Shown here piece after piece: positions 12,972 through 43,545 of a DNA stretch of 47,112 nt. The DNA lies in sequence record NC_024210.1; one strand, written 5' to 3'. Positions within the stretch are counted from its first letter, which is position 1; each line of letters begins with the position of its first letter. The position numbers and the translations under genes were made by a program. This DNA comes from Escherichia phage e4/1c. The notes beneath the pieces were generated by a model. That model did no database searches and had not been told where the DNA came from. It saw only the letters and a list, made by a program, of their open reading frames with translations.

Positions 12972-15900
12972 ATGGCAGAATTTGCAGGTATCACACTTGG
13001 CGTTGACGTTCGCCAGGTTGACCAGGGCATAAAGTCCCTGCAAGAATTTAAACGTGCCAATGAACAGGCGGCAGCTGGAGTTAGCGAGTTCGTTAACGCT
13101 GAGCTGGTTGCGAAGAATCAGGCTCGCGACACTGCAAGGTATCTTTCTGAGCAGAGAAGTGCTTTTCAGTCGCTTCAGTCGGCAATTGATCCAACAGCTT
13201 CGAAATTGCGAAAACTTCAAGATGCAGCAAGTTCTCTTGATAGGGCCTTCTCCGCAGGGGTTGTTCCAGAGGCTGAGTTTTACAGGCTTGGTGAAGCATT
13301 AGAAACGCAAACAAATAGGTTAATAAGGTCTAGGTCAGCATTAACTGAGGAGGGTAGGGCGGCTATAGAAGCTGCAAAAAATAAAGAGTCCGCTGAGAGG
13401 CAAGCGCAATCATTTATTAGGTCGCTTCAAGCGCAGGCTGACGCAGCGACATTAAGTAGGGATGAGTTCTTAAAGTTAAGGGCGGCACAGCTTGGAGTTA
13501 GCGATCAGGCAGCACCAATAATAGATAGAATAACACAGGCATCAAGTAACAATACTAACGCTATAGCCAATCAAAGTAGGGCGTTTCAGGCGGCTGGGAT
13601 ATCGGCAGGTCAGTACAATCAGGCTTTAAGGTTCCTTCCTGTACAGATCAATGATATCACCAGCTCGATTGCTAACGGTATGCCTTTATTTATGGTGCTT
13701 ACCCAGCAAATACCGCAGATTACAGATTCATTTGGTGGATTTTCAAATACATTATCAGCTGCGCAAGGTGCAGTTATAGATTATGTATCATCAATAGGCG
13801 AGCTGAGAAGTTCATTTGCTGATGTTAGGACTCTTGGTAATGATGCTATCTTAAGGTTTGGTCGTGCTGCAACTATATTTGGTGGCGCGATAGTTGCTTC
13901 ATTAGCTGTTCTTGGTAAAGCCGCTTACGACTCATTTATTGAGGTTAGGCAACTTAATAACGCAATAATTGAAACTGGAAGGTCGTCGACTTTATCAGTT
14001 GCCGCTATCAAGGATTACGCTGATCAGCTAAATGAAACATCAAGGGCAACAAAAGGTTCTATTGGTGACATTTACCAGTCGCTAGTATCAAACGGAAGGC
14101 TTACTGTTAGTCAGATTAACTTAATCGCTAAGTCTGTTGCTAACCTTTCAGCTGTTAGTTCAAGGTCTGCGGAATCAATAATATCTGACTTTGATAAGAT
14201 AGCAAAAGATCCAGTTAAGGGGCTGATAGAGTTAGATAAGCAATTTAACTTTCTTAGCGAAGGGCAGTTGACCCTAGTTAACAACCTAAAAGAAACGGAA
14301 GGGCAAACAGCAGCAGTAACAGCAGCTTTAGAAATATTTGCAGCTAGAAATGAGTCAGTTACAAAGCAGATTGAAGGCTCGCTTACACCTCTTGAATTGG
14401 CTTGGGGCGATTTCCGTAAGTTCGTTTCAGACACATGGGATGCTATAGGTGACAGGACTATAGGAGCTCTAAACCTATTTACTGACGTCATAGCTGCGAC
14501 TATTGAGCAAATAAGACTGATAATTGGCACTGGCGACAAGCTAATAAATGATTTCGTAATACGCGGGATAGAGGCTTTACAAAAGATACCAGGAGCATCT
14601 GGCGTTGGTAATGGAATAGCCGAACAACTAAGGAAGGATAATGACGCAATAGAAAAGGAAAACATAAGGCTAGCTAAATCTATCGCTGATAGGGATGCAA
14701 GGGTTCGCAGGGGTGAGACTGGTTACTTGAGTGTTGGAGAGGGTTCAGAAAGTCAAACTGGAACTTCTGATAGAGATTCAGAATCAAGAAGAAAGGCTTT
14801 GGCCGATGAGATTAAAGCAATTGAGGAGAGAAGTAAAAAGACAAAATCTGGAGCAAAAGAAGAGAGGGATTTGACTATAAGTTATGAGTCTGGCGTTCTA
14901 GCTCTGCAGGCTCAGCTTAAGGTTCTTCAGGAACACCGCCAGATTATTGATGTTATCAGTAACGAACGCAAGCAGCTTTTTGCGGAGGAAGCTAAGTTTG
15001 CAATCCTTAATGAAAGGCTTGCAGACGGAACCATCACAAAGCAACAGCGATCATTACTGTTGCAGCAGGATAAAATCTTAGGACTTGCTCGCGAGAAGGC
15101 TGAGATTGGCGACCAGATTGTGCTGCAAGAAAGGGCCAATAAACTGCTTGATGACAACATCAAGAAGACTCGCCAGATCAACGCTGAAGCGGCATCAATT
15201 AGTGTTGGAGCAGGATTATCTCAGCGCGAAGCGGAAAGGCGGCGTGAGTTGGCGGCGCTAGAAGCCCAGCAAATTTCTAAAGGTGGCTCCGTAGATGACA
15301 CTGACTTCCAGGCTTTACTTCAGGCTCGTCAGAATTTCTACAATCAGGAAGATGCATTGCGTGGTAACTGGCTGGCTGGCGTTAAATCTGCGTTTGCTGA
15401 GACGGCTGATGAATTGGCAAAATTCAATCAGATTGGTTCCGAGCTAGCCATGAGTGCCTTTAACGGATTGACTGACCAGATAACAAACCTGGTAACTACT
15501 GGAGAGGCTAGCTTCCGTGAGTTTACCGCATCGATTCTGAAGCAGATTGCACGCATTGCAACGCAGCTACTTTTAATTAAGGCGATTGAATCAACCATCT
15601 CCAGTTTTGGCGGTAGTGGTGGTGCAATTGGCTCTATTGGTAGCGCATTTGGTTTCGCTTCTGGCGGTTATACTGGAAACGGTGGTAAGTACGAGCCAGC
15701 TGGCACGGTGCATAAAGGTGAATTCGTCTTTACGAAGGAGGCAACCTCAAGGATTGGCGTTGATAACCTTTATAAGTTAATGCGCGGGTACGCAAACGGC
15801 GGCGTGGTTGGTTCCGGTCCTGGCTATGCAACTGGTGGGCTTGTTGGTGGGAGTAACGTTAACGTTGGTGGTGTGAATGTTACCGTTCAGACGGGTCTTG

Positions 15901-18552: not shown

Positions 18553-18602
18553 TTTAGTGTAGAATGGCATAAATGGTTAAACAAACAACGAGGTTATATG
18601 AT

Positions 18603-21600
18603 ATGGCCGATTTGCCAAAGATTTATGGAAGCAAGGGTGGCAGCCAAAAGCAGCACACGCCAGTAGAGCAAGAAGATAACCTTATTTCACTTAACAAGAT
18701 TAAGGTTCTGCTTGCGGTTGCTGATGGTGAGGTTGACTCTAGCTTCTCGCTTAAGGATGTTTACCTTGCTGACGTTCCAGTTCAGAACCAGGACAACTCA
18801 TTCAACTATGAAGGTGTGACAGCTGAGTTTCGCCCCGGCACTCAATCCCAAGATTACATCGCAGGACTAGATGGCGCGGCATCAGAGATTCAGGTTAGTC
18901 GTGAAATTAACAACGACACACCTTACATCATCGGAGTTAACAACAGTCAGTTGTCAGCAATCCGTGTAAAGCTGTTCTGGCCTCGTCTCGTTAAGCAAGA
19001 AGAGAATGGAGATTTAAATGGTACAAAATGTGAATATGCAATCGATTTATCAGTTAATGGCTCAGCGTACACTGAATACACCAGAGGCGTGGCTAACGGT
19101 AAAACTACAACAGGTTACGACCGCAGTATCAGGGTTAACTTACCAGCCGAGTTTAGCAGCGCTCTTGTTCGTATTAGGAAGCTAACTCCTGACTCAAAAA
19201 GCAGCACGCTGGTGAACGGAATGCAGATTACAACCTATCAGGAAGTAATCGACGCTAAATTCCGCTACCCTCTTACAGCACTTGTTTATGTGGAGTTCAG
19301 TTCTGACCTGTTCCCTAATGGCATCCCAACGATAGCCATTAAGAAGAAGTGGAAGCTTATCCGCGTGCCGACAAATTACAATCCAGAGACAAGGACTTAT
19401 AGCGGTACATGGGATGGCACTTTTAAAATGGCATGGTCTGACAACCCGGCATGGGTTTTATATGACCTGGTGGTTAGCCAGCGTTACGGTTTAGATCAGC
19501 GAGAACTTGGTGTAGAGATTGATAAATGGGGGCTGTATGAAGCGGCGCAATTCTGTGACCAGATGGTTCCGGATGGTAATGGTGGAATGGAGCCGCGATA
19601 TACTTGTAACGTTGTCATTCAGCAGAAAGTGGAGGCGTATCAGCTTATTCGTGACATCTGTTCTATCTTCCGCGGTTTAACCTTCTACGATGGTGAGCAA
19701 ATCGGTATTGTTGTAGACAGGCCGCGCCAGCCTAGCTATGTGTTTACCAATGATAACGTTGTTGATGGTTTGTTTAACAGGACCTTCTCTAGTGATAAGT
19801 CTCTTTACACTACAGCAAACGTTCAGTTTGATGACGTAGAGAATAACTATCAGCAAGATGTTGAACCAGTGTTCGACCTTGAGGCAACTCGCCGCTTTGG
19901 TTATAACCCTGTAGATCTGACTGCAATTGGATGTGTAAGGCGTAGTGAGGCTAACCGTCGAGGTCGATGGCTGCTTAAAACAAACCTACGCAGTGAAACG
20001 GTAACTTTCACAACTGGCCTCGAAGGCATGATTCCGATGATTGGTGATGTAATTGCTGTCAATGACCAGGCCTGGTCTAGCAACTACACGTTAAACCTTT
20101 CTGGTCGAATCGTTGAGGCTGCAGGTTTGCAGGTTTTTGTACCATTCGCTATTGATGCGGACCCGGGCGACAGGATTTTAATCAACAAGCCAGATGGAAT
20201 CCCAGAGTACAGGACTATCGCTTCCGTATCTGCCGATAAGTTGACGCTTGAACTGAATACAGCATTCAGCTTCACGCCGCAGCCAGATACAGTATTTGCA
20301 ATAGACAAGCAGAATCTGGCTTTACAGAAGTATGTGGTGACCGGGATTCAAAAAGCTAACACGGACGGAGAGGACTCATTCCAGTACAGCATCACAGCCG
20401 TTCAGTATGACCCTAACAAGTACGATGAGATTGACTACGGTGTAAACATCGACGACAGGCCAACAAGCATCGTTGACCCTGACAGGATTTTGCCACCGCA
20501 GAACATCACCGTTACTAGCTACAGCAAGGTAGTTCAGGGTTTAAGCGTTGAGACGATGGTTATTGGTTACGACAAGGTGCAGTATGCGAAAACATACAAC
20601 GTACAATGGCGTAAGAACAATGGTAACTGGATTAACGTACCAGAGACGGCTAACACTGAGGTTGATATTGAAGGCATTTACGCTGGCATTTACGACGTCA
20701 GGGTTCGTGCTGTAACTGACCAGAAATCAGTGTCTGCATGGTCTGATATCACGACAGTCAGCTTGACTGGCAAGATTGGAGAGCCATCAGCGCCTCCTGT
20801 AATTACCGCATCTGATGATGAGGTCTTCGGGATTAGGGTTAGGTGGGGCTTCCCTACTGACTCAGCCGATACTGCGTACACCGAGCTTCAGCAGGTTCCG
20901 GATAATGGTGACGGTACATACAATCCAGAGAATGCATCACTGCTTACGCTGGTTCCTTACCCGCAGTATGAGTACTGGCACACAACTTTACCAGCAGGTA
21001 ACGTGAGGTGGTACAGGGCAAGGATTATTGACAGGATAGGTAACGTATCTCCATGGACTGATTTTGTCAGGGGTATGGCATCTGATGATGTAAGTGCAAT
21101 CATTGGCGACATCAAGGTTGATATAGAAAACTCCGATGGGTACAAGTATCTTCTCCAGAACGCTATTGATGCAAATACTGACATCCAGAACCAGGCCGAA
21201 GCAATAATCGAGAATGCCCTGGCAAACGACACTGATGTTCGCGTTATGAAGCGCGAGAATGGGGCAAGGAAGGCTGAATATCGCCAAGCTGTAAGTTTGA
21301 TTGCTGATGAAACTCAAGCGCGTGTAGACGCTCTCACGGAGCTTAAAGCGCAGATTGATGATGAGATTGTTGGTCAGATTACGACAATTGAGACCGCGCT
21401 AGCTACTGAGACCGAAGCAAGGGCTACAGCTGATACGGCTCTCAGTGCAAGGCTTGGGGATAACGAGGCGGCTTTGAATCAGAAGCTTGACTCTTATGCC
21501 ACAGTCGAAGGCGTTGGTGTTCAGTACGGCGTTAAGCTAGGCCTGAAGTACAATGGAGTTGAGTATGGCGCTGGTATGAGCATGGAGTTAACTGGTAGCG

Positions 21601-22982: not shown

Positions 22983-23227
22983 TATTTCCACTCCTTAGAT
23001 CCGTGATCTGCAACTGAACCGCCGTAGCCTCCACCAACCTTTGACTCAATACCAGCATAACGAATATCAACCTCTCCAGCTGGAACAATAACGCCACCTT
23101 TCCACTTAGCTACGCATACACCAGAGGCCTGAGTTGCACACCATCCGTCAGGGCGCGGGCCAGAAGAACAACCTACTGTCATTATTACTGCTGTTGCGAT
23201 GATTGCTGATTTGATGAATTTGGTCAT
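22982..23227 (-). CDS. Cor/Llp-like superinfection-exclusion lipoprotein (putative)
   Basis: 81 aa; N-terminal [20 protein letters not shown] signal with lipobox-like VGC, Ser at +2; stop overlaps RBP start. Confidence 0.5.
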
Positions 23228-23267
23228 TTTGTATTCCTTATTAAGTATGTTTCGTTTCGATGGAGTA

Positions 23268-23311
23268 ACTATAGCAAAGGCCGATGCGGGAGTCTTTAGC
23301 AAATCGTGCTA
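23268..23311 (-). promoter_or_regulatory. palindrome-type promoter unit for lipoprotein-RBP operon
   Basis: minus-strand TAGCACGATTTGCTA (23297-23311), 23 bp, TATAGT, then CCATCGAAACGA leader. Confidence 0.5.
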
Positions 23312-23315
23312 TTTG

Positions 23316-23470
23316 ATATACGCGTAACCGATGTAACTCGATGTATACAATCTAATCCGAGGAAAATTGTATACGCTTTTTACGCGAGGATACGCATTAG
23401 TTACATTTATAAATCCTTATATATTAAGGGTTTAGAGTATTATTATTATTATATATATTACTATGTATAT
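23316..23470. repeat. regulatory repeat region A (homologous to 43180-43330)
   Basis: shares TATACGCGTA... and a near-identical 60-bp segment ATCCTTATATAT.AAGG..TTAGA.TATTATTATTATTATATATA with region B. Confidence 0.7.
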
Positions 23471-23760
23471 CTTGTAACTAATCTCTATAGCTATGTTGGT
23501 ATGTTTTTCTAAAAGACTATGTTTGATTTCCTGTTAAGGAGTAGATGCATATAGATATAGATATGGTGCAAAAGTGGTGGATACATTGGTTACAAGAGTT
23601 ACACTCAGCATCCATGCGGCGCACAGAGTTGCAAAGCGTATTCAGGTGCGTTTTACGTAGATATACAGATAGCTTTTTTGGTTTATTAATGAGCATTTAT
23701 TGGCAATTAAAGCGGTAGTTAATATCAATATTGCTACCTTGATTGCTAATGCCTGGCATG

Positions 23761-23804
23761 CGGTCAATAAAAATGTTGACTGTACGGTCAATAAAAATGT
23801 TGAC
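23761..23804 (+). promoter_or_regulatory. tandem 20-bp operator-like repeat (CGGTCAATAAAAATGTTGAC x2)
   Basis: two identical copies separated by 4 bp; each contains inverted arms GTCAA/TTGAC; second copy provides the -35 of the early promoter. Confidence 0.6.
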
Positions 23805-23828
23805 CGATTGAAATTTTTTCAGTAAATT
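23800..23828 (+). promoter_or_regulatory. sigma70-type early promoter (TTGACC, 17 bp, TAAATT)
   Basis: canonical spacing; followed by TCATCGATACGAG leader and gene at 23864. Confidence 0.6.
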
Positions 23829-23863
23829 TAGCTCATCGATACGAGCATGGGGTACGGCAGGAA

Positions 23864-24235
23864 ATGAGATTAACAAAGATTGAGATTATGAAGGTTTTAT
23901 CAGGCCATCCTGATTACGAATTTAAGTTATGGGAGGTTGGGGGCTTACCGATAGAGGCTAGAGATCTTTCTTATATAATGTTTGGTCACGAGGAAGGTGG
24001 AAAGAAGTCAAAAATGACTTGTTGTAAGCAAGCTCTAGATAGGATGGTAAATGATGGTTATCTGGAGTCGTCAAAGGTAACTATAAAACCACATACAGTT
24101 GATAACAGAAGCATGAGGGCGACTGTAAGCAGGTACAGAGTTAAGGGCTCTAACATTAGTTGGTTTAAGAAAACTGACGAATTTGCGAAGTGCAGAGAGA
24201 TAACGCTAACTAAAGAGGATTACAAAAGTGAGTAA
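23864..24235 (+). CDS. hypothetical early protein (123 aa)
   Basis: first gene downstream of early promoter; possible DNA-binding fold not confirmable. Confidence 0.5.
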   Translation: MRLTKIEIMKVLSGHPDYEFKLWEVGGLPIEARDLSYIMFGHEEGGKKSKMTCCKQALDRMVNDGYLESSKVTIKPHTVDNRSMRATVSRYRVKGSNISWFKKTDEFAKCREITLTKEDYKSE

Positions 24236-24806
24236 AGACATGATTTCAATTGTTGATTATTGCAACGCTTTATCATTTAAGCCAGCATTAGTTATTAAGG
24301 CTATAGAAGAAATTATTTGCTTTGATAAAGGAAGCCTCGCTGAGTGGGTTGATGGGATTTGCTTTATGAACAAAAGATTAATGATAGCCGTAACAACAAA
24401 GATCGATACTTCAAAGATTTATCTGGTGCTTGATTATATGGATAGGGTTGAGTCTGAGGTTAAAGATAGATTCAACACAATGGTTCAACTAAAAATTGAG
24501 AATGCAGTGGCGAGAGTTAATAATCAGCTAGCAATTGAAATGGCTCATAGTGAGCGACTTCATAAGCAGGCTGATATCTACTACAAGCAATTATCAAGAC
24601 TTGAGAGCAAGAAAACTACAGCAGAGTGCGTAAAGGAAGCTAACGCATCAGAACGCCAGGCATGGAACGATAGATGCAATGAACGCGAGGATGTCTTAGT
24701 CGCTAGGGCAAACATTCAGTCTCTTGAGCAAAAGGAGAAGATACTTCTTGCTAGTTCTGGTATTTCGTACCAATCAAGAGAATTCCTGGCTATAGGTAAA
24801 AACTAA
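24228..24806 (+). CDS. hypothetical early protein (192 aa), coiled-coil C-terminus
   Basis: overlapping start (GTG 24228 with RBS AAGAGGA, or ATG 24240). Confidence 0.5.
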   Translation: MSKDMISIVDYCNALSFKPALVIKAIEEIICFDKGSLAEWVDGICFMNKRLMIAVTTKIDTSKIYLVLDYMDRVESEVKDRFNTMVQLKIENAVARVNNQLAIEMAHSERLHKQADIYYKQLSRLESKKTTAECVKEANASERQAWNDRCNEREDVLVARANIQSLEQKEKILLASSGISYQSREFLAIGKN

Positions 24807-25077: not shown

Positions 25078-26046
25078 ATGAGCTTCAAGGTTTACACTAA
25101 CGATGAGTTAACCAATGAAGCCTACCATCAGGAGTCAGATCATGTGTCTGGTTCTGGTCTGGCTCACATTTTCTCAACTTGCCCAGCTGCACACAAGTTC
25201 TCTGAGCATGATGACGAGAGTAAGGCACTTAAGTTTGGTACGTTGGCCCACACGGTAATTCTTGAGAACTCTGCGTTCGACGCAACTTATTACCGGCAAC
25301 CAGCGCAGGAAGAGTTTGAAGACCTGATCACCAGCAAGACTGCATTAGCCGCAAGACTTAAGGCGATGGGAATTACAGGCACATCAGGTAAGGATTACCC
25401 TGAATTAATGGAGATGCTGACACTGACCGGTGAATCACTAAACGTATGGTGGGATATCCAGCGATCTAGCGAGGTTAAAGCTGAAGCCCGAGAGATTGTA
25501 TCAGCTAAGGACTTTGACACCGTACAGGCTATGAGAGAGGTTCTATGCGGCATTCCTGCTTACAATGCCATAGTTAACAGTAAAACCGCTCAGCGAGAGT
25601 TATCAATCTTCGGTGAGATTAATGAGTGCGGAGTTAAGGTAAGGCTGGACCATGTTGATGTTGTTGGTGATAAAGTTGTGATCACAGATTACAAGACAAC
25701 ATCAGACGCATCTCCTGAATGTTTTGGTAGGTTGGCGGCTAACTATGGCTACTTGCTTAAGATGAGTTTACAGCGCGATCTATTTGTGCGTGCGTTCAAT
25801 GAGAAGCGCAAGGTTGTTGTCCAGTTACTGGCTCAGGAGAAAAAGGCACCATACCTTCCAATGCTTTACACATTATCAGATGCGCACATTGCTTTAGGTC
25901 GCAGGCAGTATATGGAAGCATTGGCAACATACAAACAGTGCAAGAAGTTTAATGTCTGGCCCGGTTACAACGCAATTGAGGATTCTATGGAGTTGCAGGT
26001 TCCAGAGTTTTATATGAAGAAATACGAAAACAGCACGAATAGCTAA
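25078..26046 (+). CDS. PD-(D/E)xK-type exonuclease (recombination exonuclease)
   Basis: 322 aa; motif VRLDHVDVVGDKVVITDYKTT; directly upstream of Erf. Confidence 0.6.
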   Translation: MSFKVYTNDELTNEAYHQESDHVSGSGLAHIFSTCPAAHKFSEHDDESKALKFGTLAHTVILENSAFDATYYRQPAQEEFEDLITSKTALAARLKAMGITGTSGKDYPELMEMLTLTGESLNVWWDIQRSSEVKAEAREIVSAKDFDTVQAMREVLCGIPAYNAIVNSKTAQRELSIFGEINECGVKVRLDHVDVVGDKVVITDYKTTSDASPECFGRLAANYGYLLKMSLQRDLFVRAFNEKRKVVVQLLAQEKKAPYLPMLYTLSDAHIALGRRQYMEALATYKQCKKFNVWPGYNAIEDSMELQVPEFYMKKYENSTNS

Positions 26047-26073
26047 AACAACATTAAATCGGTGAGGTATATT
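26031..26073 (+). promoter_or_regulatory. degenerate palindrome-type promoter unit upstream of erf
   Basis: CAGCACGAATAGCTA (overlaps exonuclease C-terminus), 22 bp, TATATT, then CCTCATCGACAACGAGAGGA. Confidence 0.4.
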
Positions 26074-26101
26074 TACCTCATCGACAACGAGAGGAAGAAA
26101 T

Positions 26102-26790: not shown

Positions 26791-27294
26791 ATGGCTGGAT
26801 ATATAAAGTACGATGATTTCTCAAAGTACTTGCATTTAGATAATGATGGTGATTTGTGCTGGAGCGTAAGCGTAAAATCATCTAAAGTTGGTAAGATGAA
26901 AGGCTCACCTGACAATTACGGTTATAAGCATTTTCACCTATTTGGAAAGAGATGGAAATTTCATAGAGTAATATACTGCCTACATAACAAGTGCGACCTA
27001 GATAGCTCAATTGAGGTTGACCATATTGATTTAGATAAAAGCAATAACAAACCATCAAATTTAAGAATTGCATCAAGGCACGATAACCAACAGAATAGAG
27101 GTAAGAATAAAAACAACACTAGCGGATACAAGGGAGTTTGCTTTCATTCAAAAACTGGCTGCTACTTTGGTAGAGTCTTGTTTGATGGCAAGGTTTACTC
27201 AACCAAATACCACAAACTAGAAGTAGATGCACACAAAGAACTTTGCAAAATCAGATCTAAATTTAAATCAACTTATGTAAACAACGGAGAATAA
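26791..27294 (+). CDS. HNH-AP2 homing endonuclease (intact)
   Basis: 167 aa; HRVIYCLHNKCDLDSSIEVDHIDLDKSNNKPSNLR (HNH) followed by NTSGYKGVCFHSKTGCYFGRV (AP2-like). Confidence 0.8.
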   Translation: MAGYIKYDDFSKYLHLDNDGDLCWSVSVKSSKVGKMKGSPDNYGYKHFHLFGKRWKFHRVIYCLHNKCDLDSSIEVDHIDLDKSNNKPSNLRIASRHDNQQNRGKNKNNTSGYKGVCFHSKTGCYFGRVLFDGKVYSTKYHKLEVDAHKELCKIRSKFKSTYVNNGE

Positions 27295-27752: not shown

Positions 27753-30468
27753 ATTGCGATGTTACATCACCATTCAAGCTCAAAGATACTGATTGTTTTG
27801 TCAAATCAACACCACCTTTAAGTGAATAGTATCTTGAAGCGCAATAATCAGACTCATCTGAATAGCCGCCAACGTACACACCAAATCCATATCCAGAGCA
27901 AGCTACATCACCACCACCTTGACCTGAGTACATGGTAACATAATTACCAGCTGTTGTTAGTATAGGTCTGACATCAATATCTATATACTGAGAATCAAAT
28001 GACCTTCTAATTCTAAATCCAGTATTCAGGTTTAAGATGCTCCACCAAATCTTGCCGGATACATCAAAACCAAGAGCGATATTATAAATACCACCATTGA
28101 CCATTCTTGATGAGACTGGCAACACACCTGATAAAACTCTTGTTTCACCTGATGCTGATATTAACAATGATACACTGTGTTCTCCTGATGCCATCACGTT
28201 ATACTGCAAGTAAAGAGCATTACTATTAACTCCAAAACCAGTCCCTATAGCCATAAGGTTAAAGTCTTCAGCAACAGTTATGGTCGGCGATATATTGCAT
28301 GTAGCGGTGAAACCTAGTGACGGGTCAAATCCAGTGCATATAATCTTATCTTTATTTGCCTGTGAAAGCCTTAGCCAATATTGCTGCCCAACTGATGATG
28401 CCGCCGCGGCGAATACTGGTGTATTAGAGACCCCATCAAAAGCTGAAGTGTCGTTTGCTGGCTTAATTCTTGTCTTCCTTTTGTCTATTAGTCCGTTTAT
28501 CTTCAGGTTTCCTGAATACTCAGAAACATAGTTAGTGTCCCCTGAGAAATTTGGGCCAAAGTAACCAGATTCAACAACCCCATCGATCACAACATCAGAT
28601 CTTGAGTCAAGGAATCTGAAGTTGCCAGCGGAAGTTGGCCTTCCATCGCCATTGTTAGATACATAGTTAAGCCCAACAAAACCATAGATTCTTACAGAGC
28701 TATTTGAAAACGAAACGTTATAATCTCTGTAGTTTGAGTTTATGCTGTTCCTGTTACTATTTAATCCATTAAATACCACATTTCTAGAGTTTACAATTCT
28801 AACTCCGTCACCACCGCAATCCTGTGCTTCTATAGCTGACATGGTGATGTTTTGGCAGTTATCAACCAGGATGCCATAAGCATCATCAAGCTCATTGTAA
28901 GGCGACCAACCTGACCAAATAAACTTACCGCCAACAATCCTACAGTTTCCGGCATTCCTAAGTATTAGACAATTTCTTCCACAGGTGTTTACCTGTATGT
29001 TATTCCATGTGAAGTCTGTTGTTTCGTTAATCAATCCGTCTTTTTTTATGTGCTGAATAAGAACATCATCAAGAACGGGAGAGTAGTTACCAGCAGCAAC
29101 GAAAATTCCGTAAACATCAAACCCAGCAATGTGAGTGTTTCTTATCGTTAAGTCCCTCCTAGGGTCAGCACCAGCGTTGAATGGGTAATTGGTTGATAAC
29201 CCAGTCGGCGTAGGGATGTAAATCCCAGCAGTACCATCAGTAAACGCCGTGTCTTGCTGGGCTCCAGTGCCGTAAAGAGCAATTCCTTCAATATGAATGA
29301 GCGAGCAAGAATCAGATACCTCAATTAAAGAGCCAATTGATGAACTAAGCTGAGTTATTCTTGATTTGTGCTTGCCAAAACCAATTATAGAGCAAGATTT
29401 ATTTCTCATTACCAGGTTTGATGCCATGTAGTCGCTATTAAGCTTTAATGCCAGCCCAGAGTCTAGGATTTGCTGTATCTGTGTCGTTGAGTCTGATGTC
29501 GATGACTTAATAGCTCCAAGTTCGCAAGGCGACAGCTCCCCGCTACAGATTCTTTCCCAGTAATAACCGGTACTTGATTCAAAAACCAACCCTGAAGATA
29601 ATCCATATGATAACGATGACTCCGGCTTACAAACAAAGAACCCACCACCATAACCAAGACCACCAATGTAAGAATCACAATAGACAACCTCTAAGTCATA
29701 AATTCTGGCAGAGTTGGTCATTGCTGATACTGATTCAAACCTTCTTGTGTAATCCTGTTGAATCCAAAAACCAACTCCAATACCACCTGTAGACTGTGGT
29801 GATGAGTTTTGTGGTATGGATTTTGGAACGCTACCAGACCAGTAATAAACCGAAACATGATTGTCATTAAAGTAAATTGCAGGCTGAGTTCTTGAGTTTA
29901 TTTCTCCACCATTTGAGAAATCAACTACAAGAGCAGATGACACAGAAGCCGCAGCAGAGCTTGCTATTGTAGCTGAAGAGGAAGCCGAGTTAGCGCTACT
30001 TTCAGCTAACTGCCTATCAGAAGATGCCTGATCTTTGTCAGAAGAAACTTGAGCAGCATCAACAGCAACTTGCTGAGATTGCATGTTGACATTATTTACG
30101 CTTTGCTGGAAAGAATCAGAATCAAATTGATTAAAAGCATCAACTGCCGCTGCAACCTCTGTTTCACGGGACTGATAATAACGAAGTGTCTCAGCAACAT
30201 CCTGAGCAAGACCTTGGACAGTAATTCCGTCATGAGCAAGGATTGAGTACTGAGTCCCAGCTGGCGCAGTAAAACCTTTATCATTGAACACACGAATCTC
30301 TGTATCGCTTAAAATCTCAGCGATAGTAACAATGGTTGTCGGGGTGGTGTTAAAAATCATTGTTGCGCCAACTCGGATTAGCGTTAGTGGTTGCCTCCAC
30401 GTGGTGCCAACACCAGTTACAGTTCCGTCAGCCGCAAGCGATGCAGTTCCAGCGTCATAAATTGCCAT
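27751..30468 (-). CDS. lateral tail fibre / tailspike with beta-helix-like central domain
   Basis: about 905 aa from ATG 30468; N-terminus MAIYDAGTASLAADGTVTGVGTTW typical of tail fibre anchors; repeated N/G/I-rich segments consistent with a parallel beta-helix. Confidence 0.65.
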   Translation of the reverse strand: MAIYDAGTASLAADGTVTGVGTTWRQPLTLIRVGATMIFNTTPTTIVTIAEILSDTEIRVFNDKGFTAPAGTQYSILAHDGITVQGLAQDVAETLRYYQSRETEVAAAVDAFNQFDSDSFQQSVNNVNMQSQQVAVDAAQVSSDKDQASSDRQLAESSANSASSSATIASSAAASVSSALVVDFSNGGEINSRTQPAIYFNDNHVSVYYWSGSVPKSIPQNSSPQSTGGIGVGFWIQQDYTRRFESVSAMTNSARIYDLEVVYCDSYIGGLGYGGGFFVCKPESSLSYGLSSGLVFESSTGYYWERICSGELSPCELGAIKSSTSDSTTQIQQILDSGLALKLNSDYMASNLVMRNKSCSIIGFGKHKSRITQLSSSIGSLIEVSDSCSLIHIEGIALYGTGAQQDTAFTDGTAGIYIPTPTGLSTNYPFNAGADPRRDLTIRNTHIAGFDVYGIFVAAGNYSPVLDDVLIQHIKKDGLINETTDFTWNNIQVNTCGRNCLILRNAGNCRIVGGKFIWSGWSPYNELDDAYGILVDNCQNITMSAIEAQDCGGDGVRIVNSRNVVFNGLNSNRNSINSNYRDYNVSFSNSSVRIYGFVGLNYVSNNGDGRPTSAGNFRFLDSRSDVVIDGVVESGYFGPNFSGDTNYVSEYSGNLKINGLIDKRKTRIKPANDTSAFDGVSNTPVFAAAASSVGQQYWLRLSQANKDKIICTGFDPSLGFTATCNISPTITVAEDFNLMAIGTGFGVNSNALYLQYNVMASGEHSVSLLISASGETRVLSGVLPVSSRMVNGGIYNIALGFDVSGKIWWSILNLNTGFRIRRSFDSQYIDIDVRPILTTAGNYVTMYSGQGGGDVACSGYGFGVYVGGYSDESDYCASRYYSLKGGVDLTKQSVSLSLNGDVTSQ

Positions 30469-30492
30469 TATGTAAATTCTCCATTTGTAAAA

Positions 30493-30507
30493 TAGCACGA
30501 ATTGCTA
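30493..30507. promoter_or_regulatory. palindrome TAGCACGAATTGCTA in 5' region of tail fibre gene (atypical placement)
   Basis: perfect copy about 25 bp upstream of tail fibre start codon, downstream of a TACAAT -10-like hexamer on the minus strand. Confidence 0.4.
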
Positions 30508-30532
30508 AAGTGGATTGTAGCATCTTTCAGGC

Positions 30533-30557
30533 ATAAAAAAACCTCCCGAAGGAGGTT
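30533..30557 (-). terminator. rho-independent terminator after primase gene
   Basis: minus strand cctcc-ttcg-ggagg followed by T8. Confidence 0.7.
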
Positions 30558-31482
30558 AGCTATTCAATAAGTCACTCGCTTTGTATATTCGCTTCCTTAC
30601 ACCTGACTTGAATGAGTACTCATCATTAGGGATTACCACATCAATATTACGATCATCAGCAACGGCGAGTAAATCGAGAGAATGAAGAGTGCATGCAATA
30701 CGTAACTTGGAGTCTTTGAGCGCATAAGCAACCATTTCCATGTTGTAACTGGAGTAGCAAACAAGCACACAGCGGTTCCTAGTAGCGAGATGAACACGAT
30801 AGCCGTCAATGAAATTATCGACCAGATAAGCGTACTCATTATCCTTAAAGGAACCAATAACAGCCACAGACTGACGAGTGTAATCTTTTGCAGCATAACT
30901 AACATCCTCCTCTTCATTTATAAACATTACATTGCACATTTCTTCTGATATACCATCACTATAAGCCATGAAGCAAGGTATTGCATGGATTAATTCACCG
31001 GATTTTGTCTTACCAACATCAAATCCAAACTCGCTATAAATACCCTCGTATGTACTGAGCGGTGTTGATTCTACTCTTTCTGTCCTTTCCATTATTTCTA
31101 CGCATCTTTCGTGGTCAATCTGTGCGCCCATCTTGTATGGTGATGTTCTTGATGCTCTGATATTTGCGCTTTTTATTACTTCAACGGGAACCAGGTTTAG
31201 CCAGTCACCAAGAGCATTAATTGATTCACTAAAAGATTCACCTCTCAGCTTTTGAACCCACAAAATTCCATCTCCTGATCCGCATTGGTTGCAAATGATG
31301 CCACCATCACCAGGCTCACTAACCTTATCAGTCCAACGACTCCTGTCATTACCTCCACAATACAAGCAAGGTTGGTGTTTCTTTGTCTTGAAAAAATTGG
31401 GGTCAGCGCCGCAAATCTGAACCATTGCATCAGCCCACAAACCTTTCATCTTCTGCAAAACTTCTTTCTTGTCGTGATTCAT
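30556..31482 (-). CDS. putative DNA primase (zinc-binding plus TOPRIM-like)
   Basis: 308 aa; N-terminal Cys cluster PCLYCGGNDRSRW ... GGIICNQCG; adjacent to helicase region. Confidence 0.5.
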   Translation of the reverse strand: MNHDKKEVLQKMKGLWADAMVQICGADPNFFKTKKHQPCLYCGGNDRSRWTDKVSEPGDGGIICNQCGSGDGILWVQKLRGESFSESINALGDWLNLVPVEVIKSANIRASRTSPYKMGAQIDHERCVEIMERTERVESTPLSTYEGIYSEFGFDVGKTKSGELIHAIPCFMAYSDGISEEMCNVMFINEEEDVSYAAKDYTRQSVAVIGSFKDNEYAYLVDNFIDGYRVHLATRNRCVLVCYSSYNMEMVAYALKDSKLRIACTLHSLDLLAVADDRNIDVVIPNDEYSFKSGVRKRIYKASDLLNS

Positions 31483-31534: not shown

Positions 31535-32008
31535 TTACTCTTTAGCTTTTCGTGCTGCTTCGTTTGCTGCTTTAATTTTTCGCCATGAGCGACACTCTGG
31601 TTTGGTGGCTAATTCAGCATCAGTAACCACGCGTAGCATGTGTCGCTTTTTGCAACGAAGAGTCAGAGGCTTACCGTTGCCGTCAAACTGAAGGTCTGGC
31701 CGGCAGAATGTAGCCCTAAATCCTTCACCAGTTCGCTTATATCGATTATGTGCAAGTTGAGCGCCGCGGGCTGAAATCATTCCTCGAGTGCACCACTCTT
31801 CCACGGTCTGGCGAGTAACCTTTAACTGCTTAGCGAGATTTGCCTTACTGCCATAGAAGTCCAATACAATCTCAAGTCGAGCCCTTAGTCCAGCCCTTAC
31901 TTCATCCTTTAATACATAGTACCCTGAAGGTCGTTTGCGTGGCTTTTTATCTTCCTTTCGGATGGTTCCGTTATTGCCGTTAAGAGTACGTTTATCGACT
32001 TGATTCAT
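31535..32008 (-). CDS. HTH DNA-binding protein, candidate transcriptional regulator
   Basis: 157 aa from ATG 32008 (RBS GAGGTGA); HTH-like SKANLAKQLKVTRQTVEEW; basic; divergent from helicase gene. Confidence 0.5.
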   Translation of the reverse strand: MNQVDKRTLNGNNGTIRKEDKKPRKRPSGYYVLKDEVRAGLRARLEIVLDFYGSKANLAKQLKVTRQTVEEWCTRGMISARGAQLAHNRYKRTGEGFRATFCRPDLQFDGNGKPLTLRCKKRHMLRVVTDAELATKPECRSWRKIKAANEAARKAKE

Positions 32009-32022
32009 TTTTATCACCTCAA

Positions 32023-32065
32023 TAGCACTTTTTGTTAAACATTAGTTTCATTGGTTGTTATTATA
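32023..32065 (+). promoter_or_regulatory. palindrome-type promoter unit upstream of helicase
   Basis: TAGCACTTTTTGTTA 32023-32037, about 21 bp, TATTAT, then AATCGAACGAAC leader; palindrome lies 15 bp upstream of divergent HTH gene start. Confidence 0.5.
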
Positions 32066-32101: not shown

Positions 32102-34045
32102 ATGACTATGCGCTTGAAAACAATACAGAAACAGATTGAAGAAATGGGTGAAGACAAGATCAAAGAGATTCAAACTAAATTCACCTCATATAATGGCATG
32201 ATTCCTTATAGCTATCAGTGTGTAATGTATAATGAGATTGCCAAGCGTATTGGTAAATATAAGCACCCGTTCATCGCAATGGCTTCAGTATCAGCTGGTA
32301 AAACTCTAGTTTTTGCCATGGTCGCTAAGCGCTGCTCTGAGATTGGTTTGCCAATGCTTCTACTTGCTCGTCAGGCTGAGCTTGTTAGTCAGAATGCTTC
32401 TGAGATTTCAGATTATGGTGTGCCTAACTCCGTTTACTGCTCAGGTCTTGGAATTAAGTCATCTTATTTTCCTGTAATTGTAGGCTCTGAGGGTACAGTT
32501 GTTGGTGGCCTTGATAAGGCGCTTGGTGACTTCTGTCCTGCTGTTGTGGCAATAGATGAGTGTCATCATCTGGATGATCAAGATATTGCAGAAGCAATAG
32601 ACAATAATGAGACATCACAGCAAGCTAGAGATAAAGGCCGGAGCCAGTACACGATAATTCTCCTCACGTTAATGGAGAGATGCCGCGCTAAGTATGGGCG
32701 TGAACTTAGGATATTTGGCCTGACTGGCTCTCCTTTCCGCGGAACAACACCAATTGTTGTGGAGAACCTTAAGGAGCTTGGGTTCTGGCGTGAAACGGCG
32801 ACTAATATTGATACCAACTATCTGGTTGAGTTCGGCTCTGTTGTACCCACAAATTTCGGGTCTACTGATGGTGTTGGCTATGATCTGTCTGAGTTTGACA
32901 CTTCAGCAGATGATGGTGTGCAGGACTTCACGAAATCTCAGCTAGAGGCAATGGAGAAGAAGATTCAGCAGTCAGGCACAATGACAGCAGAGATAATGAA
33001 GAAGGTATGGTTGGCAGCAAAAGATCGTAACGGCGTTCTTGTAACTTGCGCAGGCGAGCGACACTGCAAGGAGGCCGCAAGCTACCTTCCAGAGGGTGAG
33101 ACTTACTGCATAATTACTGGCAAAACTGGAGAGAAGCAGCGCAAGGAGCTACTGGATAAGTGCTTCTCTGGGGATATTAAATTTTGTTTTCAAGTTCAAG
33201 CTCTGACTACTGGTGTGTCAGTTCCACCATGGGATACTAGTGTAATTCTTCGCAAGATTGGTAGCCTCACGCTCCTGGTTCAGCTACTTGGTCGAGGAAT
33301 GCGTAAGCTTAAGAAGCTCCATGAAGATAAAGGAATGGTCAAGAATGACCACCTTGTATTGGATTTTGCTGGAACTATGGATTCAATGGCATCCCTTTAC
33401 TTCAACCCAATACTTGAACAGGCCCAGTATCAGCTACGCAAAAGTAATGGTAAAGAGATGAAGCAGTGCCCTGTTTGCGGCACTGAAAATAGCTTCTACG
33501 CTCGTCGCTGTATGCGTGTTGATGAGAACAATAAAAGGTGCGAATATTTCTGGGTTAGCCGCACATGTGAAGACCAAAAAGACCCGAGGACAGGAAAGGT
33601 TACCGTGAAAGGCTGTGGAGTTCAGAATGACGTTGCAGCTAAGATTTGTAGAGGTTGTGATTGCACCCTTCTAGATCCGAATCTTAAGTTAAGCGGAAAA
33701 CATTACAGAAAAAATGATTGGTTTGACGTTGTGGATTTCAAGGTTGGACTAACAAAGAACCAATCAGGAATCATCTACAACTACGTCCTTGATGATGGCA
33801 TGGGTGGGACATTCAAAGCTCATGAGGTTTTCTTTGTAGAGTCTGACCATCGAGTATGTAAAACGCTCTGGTTGAACAATGGAATTAAAGGTCACGTAGT
33901 CGACATGAACGCTAAGCGATATATGGCTGCATATCGCAATGCTCGCAAGATTATGGAGTATGCGCAGTACATCCATGCTCCTAAGAGGGTAACTCACCGC
34001 AAGACCGCTAAAGGTGGCGATAATATTGCTAATAAGGAGTTCTAA
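32102..34045 (+). CDS. superfamily II DNA helicase with C-terminal zinc ribbon
   Basis: 647 aa; Walker A SVSAGKTLVF, DECH box VVAIDECHHL, motif VI QLLGRGMRK, C-terminal CPVCG ... CRGCDC. Confidence 0.8.
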   Translation: MTMRLKTIQKQIEEMGEDKIKEIQTKFTSYNGMIPYSYQCVMYNEIAKRIGKYKHPFIAMASVSAGKTLVFAMVAKRCSEIGLPMLLLARQAELVSQNASEISDYGVPNSVYCSGLGIKSSYFPVIVGSEGTVVGGLDKALGDFCPAVVAIDECHHLDDQDIAEAIDNNETSQQARDKGRSQYTIILLTLMERCRAKYGRELRIFGLTGSPFRGTTPIVVENLKELGFWRETATNIDTNYLVEFGSVVPTNFGSTDGVGYDLSEFDTSADDGVQDFTKSQLEAMEKKIQQSGTMTAEIMKKVWLAAKDRNGVLVTCAGERHCKEAASYLPEGETYCIITGKTGEKQRKELLDKCFSGDIKFCFQVQALTTGVSVPPWDTSVILRKIGSLTLLVQLLGRGMRKLKKLHEDKGMVKNDHLVLDFAGTMDSMASLYFNPILEQAQYQLRKSNGKEMKQCPVCGTENSFYARRCMRVDENNKRCEYFWVSRTCEDQKDPRTGKVTVKGCGVQNDVAAKICRGCDCTLLDPNLKLSGKHYRKNDWFDVVDFKVGLTKNQSGIIYNYVLDDGMGGTFKAHEVFFVESDHRVCKTLWLNNGIKGHVVDMNAKRYMAAYRNARKIMEYAQYIHAPKRVTHRKTAKGGDNIANKEF

Positions 34046-34434
34046 TGGTTAAGGTTTTTCACGACAAAACAAGCACGGACAAGGCTAAAGAGGTTGTTCA
34101 CCAAATAAATTCAATAGCTTGGGTTCGCCACAACCATCCAGAGATATTTGCTTTTCACGTGAAGAATGAAGGTCTCAAGTCTATCGGCACAGCAATGAAG
34201 GACAAGCAGGAGGGAGTAATTAAGGGTGTATCAGATATTCTACTGATTGGACCAAATGGCTTTGCCGCAATAGAGCTTAAGCGAGCAATAAAATCAGATA
34301 GCAAGGTTTCAAAGGAGCAAAAGGAGTTCCTGGAAAAGGTATCAGAAACAGGAGGTTACGCGGCAATCTGTTATGGGTTTGAAATGTTTAAGTTGGCAAT
34401 TGCAGATTATCTATCAAATAGCACGAATTGCTAA
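34045..34434 (+). CDS. VRR-NUC domain nuclease
   Basis: 129 aa; GVSDILLIGPNGFAAIELKRA ... KEQKEF pattern typical of VRR-NUC PD-(D/E)xK nucleases. Confidence 0.6.
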   Translation: MVKVFHDKTSTDKAKEVVHQINSIAWVRHNHPEIFAFHVKNEGLKSIGTAMKDKQEGVIKGVSDILLIGPNGFAAIELKRAIKSDSKVSKEQKEFLEKVSETGGYAAICYGFEMFKLAIADYLSNSTNC

Positions 34435-34461
34435 AGAGATTTCGCAAGGATGCGATATAGT
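34419..34461 (+). promoter_or_regulatory. palindrome-type promoter unit
   Basis: TAGCACGAATTGCTA, 22 bp, TATAGT, then TTCATCGAAACGAAGAGAGAG leader. Confidence 0.5.
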
Positions 34462-34492
34462 TACTTCATCGAAACGAAGAGAGAGAAACAAA

Positions 34493-34911: not shown

Positions 34912-35108
34912 TTACTGCGACTTGCGTAATGACGAACGGCTCATTCACCCTGCTCAATGAGTATGAATTCAAACTTGACCCGATTAATGACCAGGTTGAA
35001 ATAGTTAGCGATGAAGGATTTGCATGGAAGTTACATAATGAATTTGATGGTTACTACGGGTGTAATGATGCGAAAGGTAAGCATGTAAGTTTTCTTGTTT
35101 ATGAGTAA
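34908..35108 (+). CDS. hypothetical protein (66 aa)
   Basis: ATGA overlap; start inferred at second Met of ORF 34890..35108. Confidence 0.4.
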   Translation: MITATCVMTNGSFTLLNEYEFKLDPINDQVEIVSDEGFAWKLHNEFDGYYGCNDAKGKHVSFLVYE

Positions 35109-35109
35109 A

Positions 35110-35152
35110 TAGCACTTTTTGTTAAAACTAAAATACAAGGATGGATTATATT
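35110..35152 (+). promoter_or_regulatory. palindrome-type promoter unit
   Basis: TAGCACTTTTTGTTA, 22 bp, TATATT. Confidence 0.5.
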
Positions 35153-35182
35153 AATTACATCAGCAAATGAGAGGGTTAAGAG

Positions 35183-35544: not shown

Positions 35545-35798
35545 ATTTACCTGGTCTAGATTTTGATGAGAGTAAGTATCAGGTTGTGTTTTTTGGTGAG
35601 AAGCCTTATCGGAAGATTCCTTTCTCTGAGTGGATTCCTCCGGACTACCTCGATGTACTGGTGCAAATTGAGATTGGTAAGGCTGAGTTGATGTACTACT
35701 CACCTGGCTGCAATATGATGATGCCTAGTGAGTATTCTCCAGCAATTGCTGCGCTTGAAACTGAGTTTCTTGATTACTGGCTAAAAGAAGTTAAATAG
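35541..35798 (+). CDS. hypothetical protein (85 aa)
   Basis: ATGA overlap; stop TAG is first triplet of next palindrome. Confidence 0.45.
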   Translation: MNLPGLDFDESKYQVVFFGEKPYRKIPFSEWIPPDYLDVLVQIEIGKAELMYYSPGCNMMMPSEYSPAIAALETEFLDYWLKEVK

Positions 35799-35838
35799 CA
35801 CTTTTTGTTAAAACATATCGCCAGGGATGGCTTATAGT
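35796..35838 (+). promoter_or_regulatory. palindrome-type promoter unit
   Basis: TAGCACTTTTTGTTA, 22 bp, TATAGT, then TCATCGAAACGAGAGG. Confidence 0.5.
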
Positions 35839-35866
35839 GTGTTCATCGAAACGAGAGGCGGCTCAG

Positions 35867-37081: not shown

Positions 37082-37267
37082 ATGTTAAAAGAAATACTAA
37101 GAATAATCCTTGGGGACAAGAGAGAATGCAAAAAATGCAGATTCGAGTATATAGATGACACAGACGAAGGTTCATTCTATGAGTGCAAGATTTGCGGAAA
37201 TGAAGTTTTGCTTGGTAAAAGTGGCGTTGTTAAGCAATCTAGAGTAACCGACTGCGATTATGACTAA
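37082..37267 (+). CDS. zinc-ribbon protein (61 aa)
   Basis: CKKC ... CKIC. Confidence 0.45.
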   Translation: MLKEILRIILGDKRECKKCRFEYIDDTDEGSFYECKICGNEVLLGKSGVVKQSRVTDCDYD

Positions 37268-37268
37268 A

Positions 37269-37311
37269 TAGCACTAATTGCCAAAACACAAATCAAAAGA
37301 TGGGGTATATT
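37269..37311 (+). promoter_or_regulatory. palindrome-type promoter unit
   Basis: TAGCACTAATTGCCA, 22 bp, TATATT, then CCATCAAAACAAAACGAGAGGA. Confidence 0.5.
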
Positions 37312-37344
37312 TACTCCATCAAAACAAAACGAGAGGATACAAAG

Positions 37345-41040: not shown

Positions 41041-41079
41041 TATCATCTCTCTCTAAATGCCCCGAAGGGGCTTGATTAT

Positions 41080-41259: not shown

Positions 41260-41297
41260 TTTTTAGCCCTTTTAATGTATTTCGTTTCGATGAAGAG

Positions 41298-41341
41298 AAT
41301 ATATCAATTTTTGTTGTTAAGTTCTTTAGCAAAAAGTGCTA
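41298..41341 (-). promoter_or_regulatory. palindrome-type promoter unit for ATPase operon
   Basis: minus-strand TAGCACTTTTTGCTA, 23 bp, TATATT, TTCATCGAAACGA. Confidence 0.5.
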
Positions 41342-41458
41342 TTAAAGACCAACCAGACATTTGCCAACTACAACAGCGATTGCGCCCATGAAGCCAAAGA
41401 AACCAAACTTAATTACTTGTTCCATTACCGCATCAACTGCTTTAGAGATGTTTTTCAT
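41342..41458 (-). CDS. small membrane protein (38 aa)
   Basis: MKNISKAVDAVMEQVIKFGFFGFMGAIAVVVGKCLVGL; start chosen at ATG 41458 with RBS AAGGTGA. Confidence 0.4.
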   Translation of the reverse strand: MKNISKAVDAVMEQVIKFGFFGFMGAIAVVVGKCLVGL

Positions 41459-41539: not shown

Positions 41540-41540
41540 T

Positions 41541-42222: not shown

Positions 42223-42256
42223 CTTAGTGATTCCTTAGTTTCGTTTCGATGAGATG

Positions 42257-42987: not shown

Positions 42988-43011
42988 TTCGTTCGATTTA
43001 TGGATTGTTGC

Positions 43012-43105
43012 GGATATTGCAATGATTAGATTCACCTTTGCGCACATAGCAATATTGCATCTATTGCAATGATTTTCTGTACTGTTGCGAAAATGGCAAT
43101 GATTG
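43012..43105. repeat. cluster of short palindromic iteron-like sites (ATTGCAATGATT family)
   Basis: TATTGCAATGATT at about 43015 and 43063, GCAATATTGC at about 43049, GGCAATGATT at about 43094. Confidence 0.6.
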
Positions 43106-43179
43106 ATGGATTGATGGAATGAAGGAGGACGCATCAACTGGTTGGTTGGTTTTCTCGCTCGCTCGGAGATAATCATTTG

Positions 43180-43330
43180 TATACGCGTAGTCCGCTGTCT
43201 ACCGATTGTCGACCGTATCCAGATTTACATTTGATACGCCTTGATACAATCCATATACATTAAAACATCCTTATATATAAAGGACTTAGACTATTATTAT
43301 TATTATATATAGTATTATGTATATATGGCG
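43180..43330. repeat. regulatory repeat region B (homologous to 23316-23470)
   Basis: TATACGCGTA plus 60-bp near-identical AT-rich segment shared with region A. Confidence 0.7.
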
Positions 43331-43381
43331 TATCCTTTGTACGCCACTATATAGGTGGGTTTGCTTAAATTTCTATTTTTA

Positions 43382-43398: not shown

Positions 43399-43545
43399 TG
43401 GGACTACGTTGTAGGAAAATATAGGGTGTATCGCCAGAAATGCACTAATAATTTGGATACGGCGAGTACGCCATGACTACATCCAGCAATGAAGCGGCCT
43501 ACGGATGAGAAAATGTAATTATTTATCGAATACATAAAAAATACC

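Follow-up and report, generated by a model that had tools for sequence, protein, structure and literature searches.

Four direct repeats beside an AT-rich unwinding region, activated by nearby transcription, make up the origin of phage lambda and the origins of iteron plasmids. In satellite phage P4, ori and crr are two clusters of one short iteron which lie several kb apart and are both needed in cis, and in the P4 alpha protein a C-terminal winged-helix origin-binding domain is joined to a primase and a helicase. The lambda control regions OL and OR, two homologous sites between outward-reading promoters, are both bound by one protein. In phage SPP1, oriL sits inside the initiator gene. This Bacillus phage, a virulent pac-type siphophage of ~44 kb, has two origin regions far apart, oriL and oriR, and one phage protein, G38P, binds both; oriL is where replication begins, and oriR is believed to serve in restarting it during the shift to concatemeric synthesis (PMC5615212). 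For T1-like phages, according to two papers, no origin has been identified (PMC11447400, PMC7718038). Here we describe a pair of homologous AT-rich intergenic modules, A and B, in Escherichia phage e4/1c (NC_024210.1), analyzed as a single stretch of 47,112 nt (the window). We tentatively read them as two copies of a cis-acting candidate replication-origin module, consisting of an iteron array and an unwinding element. A search of the literature available to us for origin mapping in T1, for transcription starts or for an earlier description of the pair found none.

The regions carrying the modules, A (23231-23544) and B (42917-43613), align best over 69 nt without gaps and in the same orientation (23402-23470 against 43256-43324, an offset of 19,854 nt), with 59-60 of the 69 positions identical (~86%). 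The Smith-Waterman score of 93 lies 23 standard deviations above the scores of 500 dinucleotide-preserving shuffles (22.5 +/- 3.1, maximum 36), far beyond the resemblance expected for AT-rich sequence. A repeat search lengthened the match to 99 nt at 77% identity with the offset unchanged, and the homology as a whole takes in a module of ~190 nt. The window holds just two copies of TATACGCGTA, at 23317 and 43180, and ATTATTATTATTATATATA is present only at 23439 and 43293. A first-pass annotation had reported a shared start and a near-identical segment of about 85% identity, in the same orientation and 19.9 kb apart, and the alignment, the count of TATACGCGTA and the shuffles all confirm it.

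Both regions are also non-coding, as that annotation had it, with no credible open reading frame (ORF) in either. The 68-aa ORF 23306-23512, which overlaps module A, was rejected: its ATT repeats translate as YYYYYIYYY, and indels of 1-2 nt distinguish related copies. A shared structured RNA was rejected as well. A has a fold z-score of -2.15 and B one of -0.5, the structures are unrelated, and neither region holds a tRNA or matches an Rfam family, the sole Rfam match in the window being the tRNA. That the likeness of A and B is a chance resemblance of AT-rich DNA, or marks a small RNA or peptide, is therefore scarcely credible: the core is indeed AT-rich and of low complexity and the 68-aa ORF overlaps module A, but the shuffle score, the tyrosine run with its indels, and the lack of a common fold or an Rfam family all speak against this explanation.

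All aligned copies of the module, taken from e4/1c, Rogue1, AHP42, phiEB49 and Rtp and then from a set of 25 copies in two subfamilies, share one order of elements. Box 0, (A/G)TAC(G/A)CGT(A/T), which in e4/1c forms the palindrome TACGCGTA, is followed by a variable spacer and by four boxes with the core [T/C]AC[G/A]. Then come TATATAnnAA and TTTA(G/C), which together fit the IHF core consensus, a core in which (ATT)4-7 runs into (AT)n, and finally TGTATA with a GTAAC- or GTAT-type box. In almost every one of the 25 copies the box cores precede TATATA by 46/47, 37, 27 and 16 nt, with variable bases in between, and this spacing of 9/10, 10 and 11 nt phases the four boxes on one face of the helix in A, in B and in nearly all copies. 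The IHF-like core, which occupies corresponding sites in A and B, has one mismatch in both and is perfect (TATCAACCTTTTA) in the Braunvirinae copies. Many of the 25 copies were gathered with a pattern that fixed TATATAnnAA and (ATT)4 and that included neither the box array nor box 0. A scan of viral contigs with a degenerate (IUPAC) pattern returned mostly AT-rich noise from giant viruses, the true homologues amounting to ~15 loci.

Further boxes lie on the far side of the easily melted segment of 50-80 bp. We provisionally count the right-hand array of A as part of the module, T1 having GGTTACAAGTGTTACGC at the equivalent place, and by analogy we assign the right-hand box pair of B to module B. 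To the right of module B, the stretch 43315-43460 is predicted to fold at -42.8 kcal/mol (z = -3.7 against shuffles) with hairpins GGCGTATCCTTTGTACGCC and TTCCTACATTGTAGGAA; it could represent a leader, a small RNA or inverted box pairs acting at the DNA level.

The conserved property of the modules is their meltability. Duplex stability was taken solely as nearest-neighbor free energy in windows of 30, 50 and 80 bp, and at all three sizes the cores of A and B are the two least stable segments of e4/1c (both z ~4.7; third-ranked segment z 3.2). At 50 bp, the least stable segment is 43272-43322 in B (-46.8 kcal/mol, z = 4.7), followed by 23420-23470 in A (-47.0 kcal/mol, z = 4.7). The two least stable 50-bp segments coincide with both cores in seven of the eight genomes examined, from five lineages: e4/1c, Rogue1, Rtp (Braunvirinae), T1 (Tunavirinae), TLS and A127 (Tempevirinae) and the Klebsiella phage mtp31 (Webervirus, 50.7% G+C). 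In phiEB49, the eighth genome, the cores rank second and third. Its additional AT-rich 50-bp segment, 18579-18629, lies ~1 kb from its module A and just upstream of a gene start; it was considered as a third module and rejected, as it is without TACGC-type boxes and has no counterpart in e4/1c. Replication origins with an AT-rich unwinding element were among the roles put forward in the first-pass annotation, and it is the least stable cores, the phased four-box arrays and the presence of the pair in five lineages that lead us to favor this one, the function itself being what we infer from these features.

In distant relatives, the conservation of region A found by BLAST spans 23304 to 23490, and the region A type occurs in 133 phage records at 183 places in total. 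The B type of e4/1c is found in six phages only; AHP42 and Rogue1 carry it, and AHS24 and phiKP26 carry a B of the phiEB49 type. Copies of the module were sought among 5,426 genomes of E. coli and 72,556 plasmids, since satellites or replicons might have borrowed it; none was found. Compared with phiEB49, positions 23200-23599 are 93-95% identical, the flanking genes 53-83%, and 23600-24800 is unrelated; compared with AHP42, 43200-43399 is 94-95% identical, the left flank 55-80% and the right flank 63-72%. Modules A and B are local conservation maxima beside mosaic DNA. The remark that such long repeats are unexpected in a compact phage genome was fair, yet the pair is a conserved trait of the family and not a peculiarity of e4/1c.

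This pattern could also arise if the modules were conserved linkers at which gene modules are exchanged by homologous recombination, with gene conversion keeping A and B alike. Islands of 93-95% identity do adjoin segments that are non-homologous or below 60% identity (23600-24800, 42700-43100), close relatives differ in B type (AHS24 and phiKP26 versus AHP42 and Rogue1), and the phage encodes RecE- and Erf-type recombination proteins. Such a role would, however, leave unexplained the fixed geometry of the boxes, the lineage-specific box motifs on both sides of the core, and an extreme meltability that is kept in T1, TLS and Webervirus despite changed sequence; we consider it improbable. A function of the repeats as substrates for deleting or inverting the block between them, also proposed at first, is unsupported, because the repeats are direct, their longest exact run is ~20 nt, and replication and lysis genes would be lost in a deletion. 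The segments 23600-24800 and 42700-43100 are hypervariable and mosaic, being unrelated or less than 60% identical even to Rogue1, AHP42 and phiEB49. The Rha-like regulator gene of relatives is replaced in e4/1c by ORFs 23864-24235 and 24228-24806, which have no Pfam match above threshold.

Within each genome, A and B resemble one another well above shuffled sequence, with local alignment scores of 66 in T1 (z 16.8), 63 in TLS (z 12.8), 141 in Rtp (z 45), 112 in A127 (z 38) and 174 in mtp31 (z 63). A cross-genome matrix further revealed that every B is closer to the A of its own lineage than to the B of any other lineage. The B of e4/1c scores 93 against its own A, 47 against the B of phiEB49 and 69 against that of Rtp, and for the B of T1 the score is 66 with T1 A, no other B exceeding 58. 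This indicates concerted evolution of the two copies, which could reflect occasional gene conversion between them.

The boxes themselves differ between lineages. The 6-mers enriched in both modules are ATACGC in e4/1c (7 of 22 genome occurrences, P = 1e-7), TGTAAC in T1 (7 of 24, P = 1.7e-7), GTTCAC in TLS (5 of 24, P = 5.5e-5), GAACAA in A127 (8 of 36, P = 2.8e-7) and GTAAGA/TCTTAC in mtp31 (14 of 26, P = 3e-18). Lineage-specific 6-mers of this kind are expected if one lineage-varying protein reads both copies, and occasional gene conversion would give the same pattern. In mtp31 the modules (15160-15674, and 48150-48467 plus 1-390) share 130 nt at ~88% identity, are mutually inverted in the record, and have at least 10 flanking GGTAAGAT/ATCTTACC boxes in both orientations; module A of this phage lies directly between the primase gene and recE.

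If the modules are origins, a lineage-specific phage DNA-binding protein would load on the box array, perhaps assisted by an IHF-type bend. The bound protein would open the (ATT)n(AT)n core, helped by negative supercoils from the outward-reading flanking promoters. An MCM-like DUF3987 helicase (39457-41046) and a primase (30556-31482) could then enter at the opened core, with synthesis by host polymerase III. The two copies would be either two origins or an origin and a cis-acting partner site for the same protein.

The replication proteins of e4/1c include the primase, a zinc-ribbon protein whose Pfam match is to a model that takes its name from the zinc-binding domain of primase-helicases and whose homologue is noted in the T1 record as similar to alpha replication protein, and a DEAD/ResIII helicase (32102-34045). 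The DUF3987 protein, 529 aa long, encoded on the minus strand and annotated as a helicase, has an AlphaFold model with a mean pLDDT of 88.3, for which the best Foldseek matches among solved structures are eukaryotic and archaeal MCM subunits, including MCM2-7 (E = 4e-5, TM-score 0.3-0.37). Its C-terminus (residues ~453-523) is modeled as helix-strand-helix-helix-strand-strand, a winged-helix-like arrangement, and is also classed as a separate PHROG family. This predicted domain is 87-97% identical among phages with TACGC boxes and 43-64% in lineages whose boxes differ. Co-variation of box type with the primase, the helix-turn-helix (HTH) protein and the helicase C-terminus was tried across seven genomes as a guide to the box reader and was set aside, since it only tracks phylogeny. 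The primase is an unlikely reader, because that of phiEB49 is 46% identical to the e4/1c protein while its module A is 95% identical.

A more specific form of the origin model, to which we give a rather low probability, is a bipartite replicon in which one lineage-specific phage protein, possibly through the winged-helix end of the MCM-like helicase, binds both arrays and joins the two sites. One module would fire, and the other would be an obligatory cis partner or a restart site for concatemer synthesis. The resemblance to P4 lies in the zinc-domain Pfam match of the primase, the alpha-like note in the T1 record and the winged-helix end of the helicase model. In contrast to P4, primase and helicase are separate proteins in e4/1c, the helicase is of the MCM-type AAA+ class, and the boxes have cores of 4-6 nt instead of being 8-mers. 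With SPP1, e4/1c has in common two distant regions, a similar genome size and exonuclease and annealing-type recombination genes, whereas the e4/1c modules are intergenic, lie far from the replication genes and show no sequence similarity to the SPP1 sites. No G38P homologue came up in e4/1c, though no search aimed at one was made. The lambda ori differs in that it has 19-bp iterons and is present once, within the initiator gene O, and we know of no O-like protein in e4/1c.

Several observations weigh against an origin function. In e4/1c the modules are 7-16 kb from the primase and helicase genes. A sequence scan found neither DnaA boxes nor GATC clusters in region A or B; such elements, like IHF sites, are not obligatory for phage origins. 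GATC is strongly under-represented across the whole window (67 sites against 184 expected from its length) and absent from both large intergenic regions. Phased short repeats beside AT-rich DNA also occur in regulated promoters, pac sites and partition sites. Moreover, the invariance of the core columns in the alignment of 25 copies is partly imposed, because the search pattern had fixed those columns. Finally, the modules contain weak sigma-70-like pairs (TTTAGA-17-TATATT, TTTACG-17-TACATT), and the (ATT)n tract always supplies a -10-like hexamer at 16-18 nt.

The promoter-like sequences bear on the alternative that the modules are a shared transcription-control hub, in which a regulator on the box arrays would switch both divergent early regions in the manner of lambda OL/OR and the core would be a promoter or UP-like element. 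This role, also raised in the first-pass annotation, remains the main rival to the origin model, plausible though less likely in our view. Both modules lie between outward-reading transcription units, and TTTAGA or TTTACT is followed after 17-18 nt by TATATT at homologous positions in many copies, the spacer of AHP42 module A apparently being held at 17 nt by offsetting indels. Boxes 2 and 4 are themselves spaced as a -35/-10 pair (the TTTACG-17-TACATT noted above). The lineage-specific boxes common to A and B would suit one regulator with two operators, and in Webervirus, whose genome is rearranged, the modules have kept their orientation with respect to the operon downstream.

A position weight matrix scan of both strands nevertheless placed the strong promoters elsewhere. 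Rank 1 of 90 went to 23800-23828 (TTGACC-17-TAAATT), and the second-best sigma-70-like site is 43546-43574 (TTGATA-17-TATAGT, with a TG before it); they lie rightward of the A core by 355 nt and of the B core by 250 nt, respectively. These two, probably immediate-early rightward promoters, reach 13.6-14.1 bits, compared with 9.1-9.5 bits and ranks of 62nd to 85th for the sites inside the modules. A better promoter likewise serves each flanking operon in T1, where TTGACT-16-TATAAT lies ~280 nt to the right of the A core, and in TLS, for which the authors' sigma-70 promoters (523-549 and 29110-29137) lie ~270-290 nt to the right of each core. On the other side, each module has a minus-strand promoter element, so that the arrangement described at the outset, a minus-strand promoter on one side and a plus-strand sigma-70 promoter on the other, holds for both regions.

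The modules were accordingly rejected as strong sigma-70 promoters, the low-ranking sites within them also failing to keep their position: the alignment column of the best predicted promoter differs from copy to copy. Against a hub, furthermore, box 0 adjoins a promoter in A but is ~200 nt from one in B, the (ATT)n number varies from 4 to 7, and the conserved HTH regulator, a Cro-like protein (31535-32017), has a 21-nt repeat and not TACGC boxes in its own upstream region. The likeness to OL/OR is also limited, since the lambda operators are 17-bp palindromes overlapping promoters, whereas e4/1c has direct repeats with a 10-nt period and strong promoters 250-355 nt away.

Pac sites with phased short repeats and an IHF site are known, as in P1, and the modules might by this token belong to a packaging signal or an accessory terminase site. 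Module B does lie in the intergenic region that holds the left end of the genome and the terminal repeat in the T1 record, and the authors of the SU57 study place the pac of T1-like phages in this region (PMC7718038). We regard such a role as very improbable for the shared module, because copy A is mid-genome, 20 kb away, and the T1 record annotates a single terminal repeat. A better pac candidate is a distinct group of ATGATT repeats, confined to the left side of B and the surroundings of position 1 in T1. In e4/1c the motif GC(A/G)ATGATT occurs on the plus strand only, at 3458, 23196, 43019, 43066 and 43096. Position 1 of the T1 record, the start of the annotated 2.8-kb terminal repeat, falls among similar ATGATTG repeats, and TLS and mtp31 have TGATT-rich repeats at the corresponding place.

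The recE operon has module A upstream of it, and records of these phages conventionally start in the divergent region that contains module B; both modules are flanked by divergent transcription units. BLAST against phage records identifies e4/1c as a T1-like siphophage (Drexlerviridae, Rogunavirinae, Rogunavirus) with AHP42, Rogue1, AHS24 and Jk06 as its nearest relatives and with the gene order of Rogue1. Since the window begins at the small terminase gene and stops just past the tRNA-Arg gene, it is probably the whole permuted genome. The statement that the two regions bracket the early block stands insofar as the 19.9 kb from A to B contain recombination, replication and lysis genes; it does not hold to the right, as small early-type genes are also present beyond B, from 43614 to the end of the window.

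A 21-nt repeat (aaATAGCACnnnTTGnTAAAA) described for TLS, where its function was called an open question (PMC11447400), is part of a dispersed intergenic element in e4/1c that always follows gene orientation: AAATAGCAC(nnn)TTGCTAAA, then ~17 nt, then GATGnnnTATAgT...CATCGAAACGA. The repeat contains the palindrome TAGCA-N5-TGCTA. Like the modules it is a conserved non-coding element of T1-like phages, and one copy abuts module A. Unlike them, it has another sequence and at least 14 copies, lies ~76 nt upstream of gene starts, is not AT-rich and falls outside the A/B homology. The Cro-like HTH protein is a candidate reader of this repeat, because the copy at 32021-32039 abuts the start of its gene.

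Table 1. Features of modules A and B and of neighboring repeat elements in e4/1c.
Feature	Position	Strand	Description
A box 0	23317..23326	+	TATACGCGTA with palindrome TACGCGTA; conserved column in 25 copies
A four-box array	23370..23407	+	TATACGCT, TTTACGCG, GATACGCA, GTTACATT; starts 23370, 23379, 23389, 23400; spacing 9-10-11 nt
A 69-nt repeat segment	23402..23470	+	palindrome CCTTATATATTAAGG 23415-23429; TTTAGA 23431-23436; (ATT)4(AT)n 23439-23460
A IHF-like core	23422-23434	+	TATTAAGGGTTTA
A conserved right flank	23471..23491	+	CTTGTAACTAATCTCTATAGC, GTAAC box
A right-hand box array	23581..23604	+	ATACAT, TTACAA, TTACAC at 23581, 23590, 23599; 9-nt spacing
B box 0	43180..43189	+	TATACGCGTA
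B four-box array	43224..43261	+	TTTACATT, GATACGCC, GATACAAT, TATACATT; starts 43224, 43233, 43243, 43254; spacing 9-10-11 nt, in the register of A
B 69-nt repeat segment	43256..43324	+	CCTTATATATAAAGG 43269-43283; IHF-like core 43276-43288; CTTAGA 43285-43290; (ATT)4(AT)n 43293-43311
B right flank, inverted box pair	43327..43345	+	GGCGTATCCTTTGTACGCC; within structured stretch 43315-43460
B right-hand box pair	43457..43472	+	ATACGG, GTACGC; 9 nt apart
21-nt-repeat leftward promoter element abutting module A	23250..23318	-	found by repeat search
21-nt-repeat-type promoter element left of B	42930-42990	-	
Dispersed 21-nt-repeat element	2172-2234, 26027-26089, 30483-30510, 32021-32039, 34415-34477, 35099-35162, 35792-35854, 37265-37327, 44692-44719, 45597-45659	+	
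Dispersed 21-nt-repeat element	23250-23318, 31540-31560, 41280-41344, 41522-41542, 42239-42302, 42970-42990	-	
GC(A/G)ATGATT repeats, candidate pac region	43008..43125	+	left of module B, outside A/B homology; tandem 47-nt repeat, three motifs

Two further features of the window were recorded. Collagen-like Gly-X-Y repeats (GGT GAT AAA and similar) occupy 7398-8186 within the 505-aa ORF 7065-8582, the counterpart of the Rogue1 gp21 region, which is variable among relatives. An HNH endonuclease gene (26791-27294, Pfam HNH_3) lies between the Erf-like recombinase gene and an ORF at the position of the Rogue1 SSB gene; neither Rogue1 nor Rtp has it there, and it probably encodes a homing endonuclease of the free-standing type. 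Cumulative GC and AT skew, tried as an origin indicator, was uninformative, as it tracks gene orientation.

Kept in every branch examined, the module pair is the best candidate so far for the replication origins of the T1 family. T1 is a classic coliphage, and its relatives are common both as therapy candidates and as laboratory contaminants. The pair offers two small, precise targets for direct testing, and the lineage-specific boxes provide a route to the initiator and may explain the replication compatibility of co-infecting T1-like phages. In addition, the modules delimit the genome's most mosaic stretches, which is relevant to phage engineering and to the exchange of gene modules. If the two sites do form a bipartite replicon, it would be the first defined origin system of the T1 family and would explain the concerted evolution of the copies.

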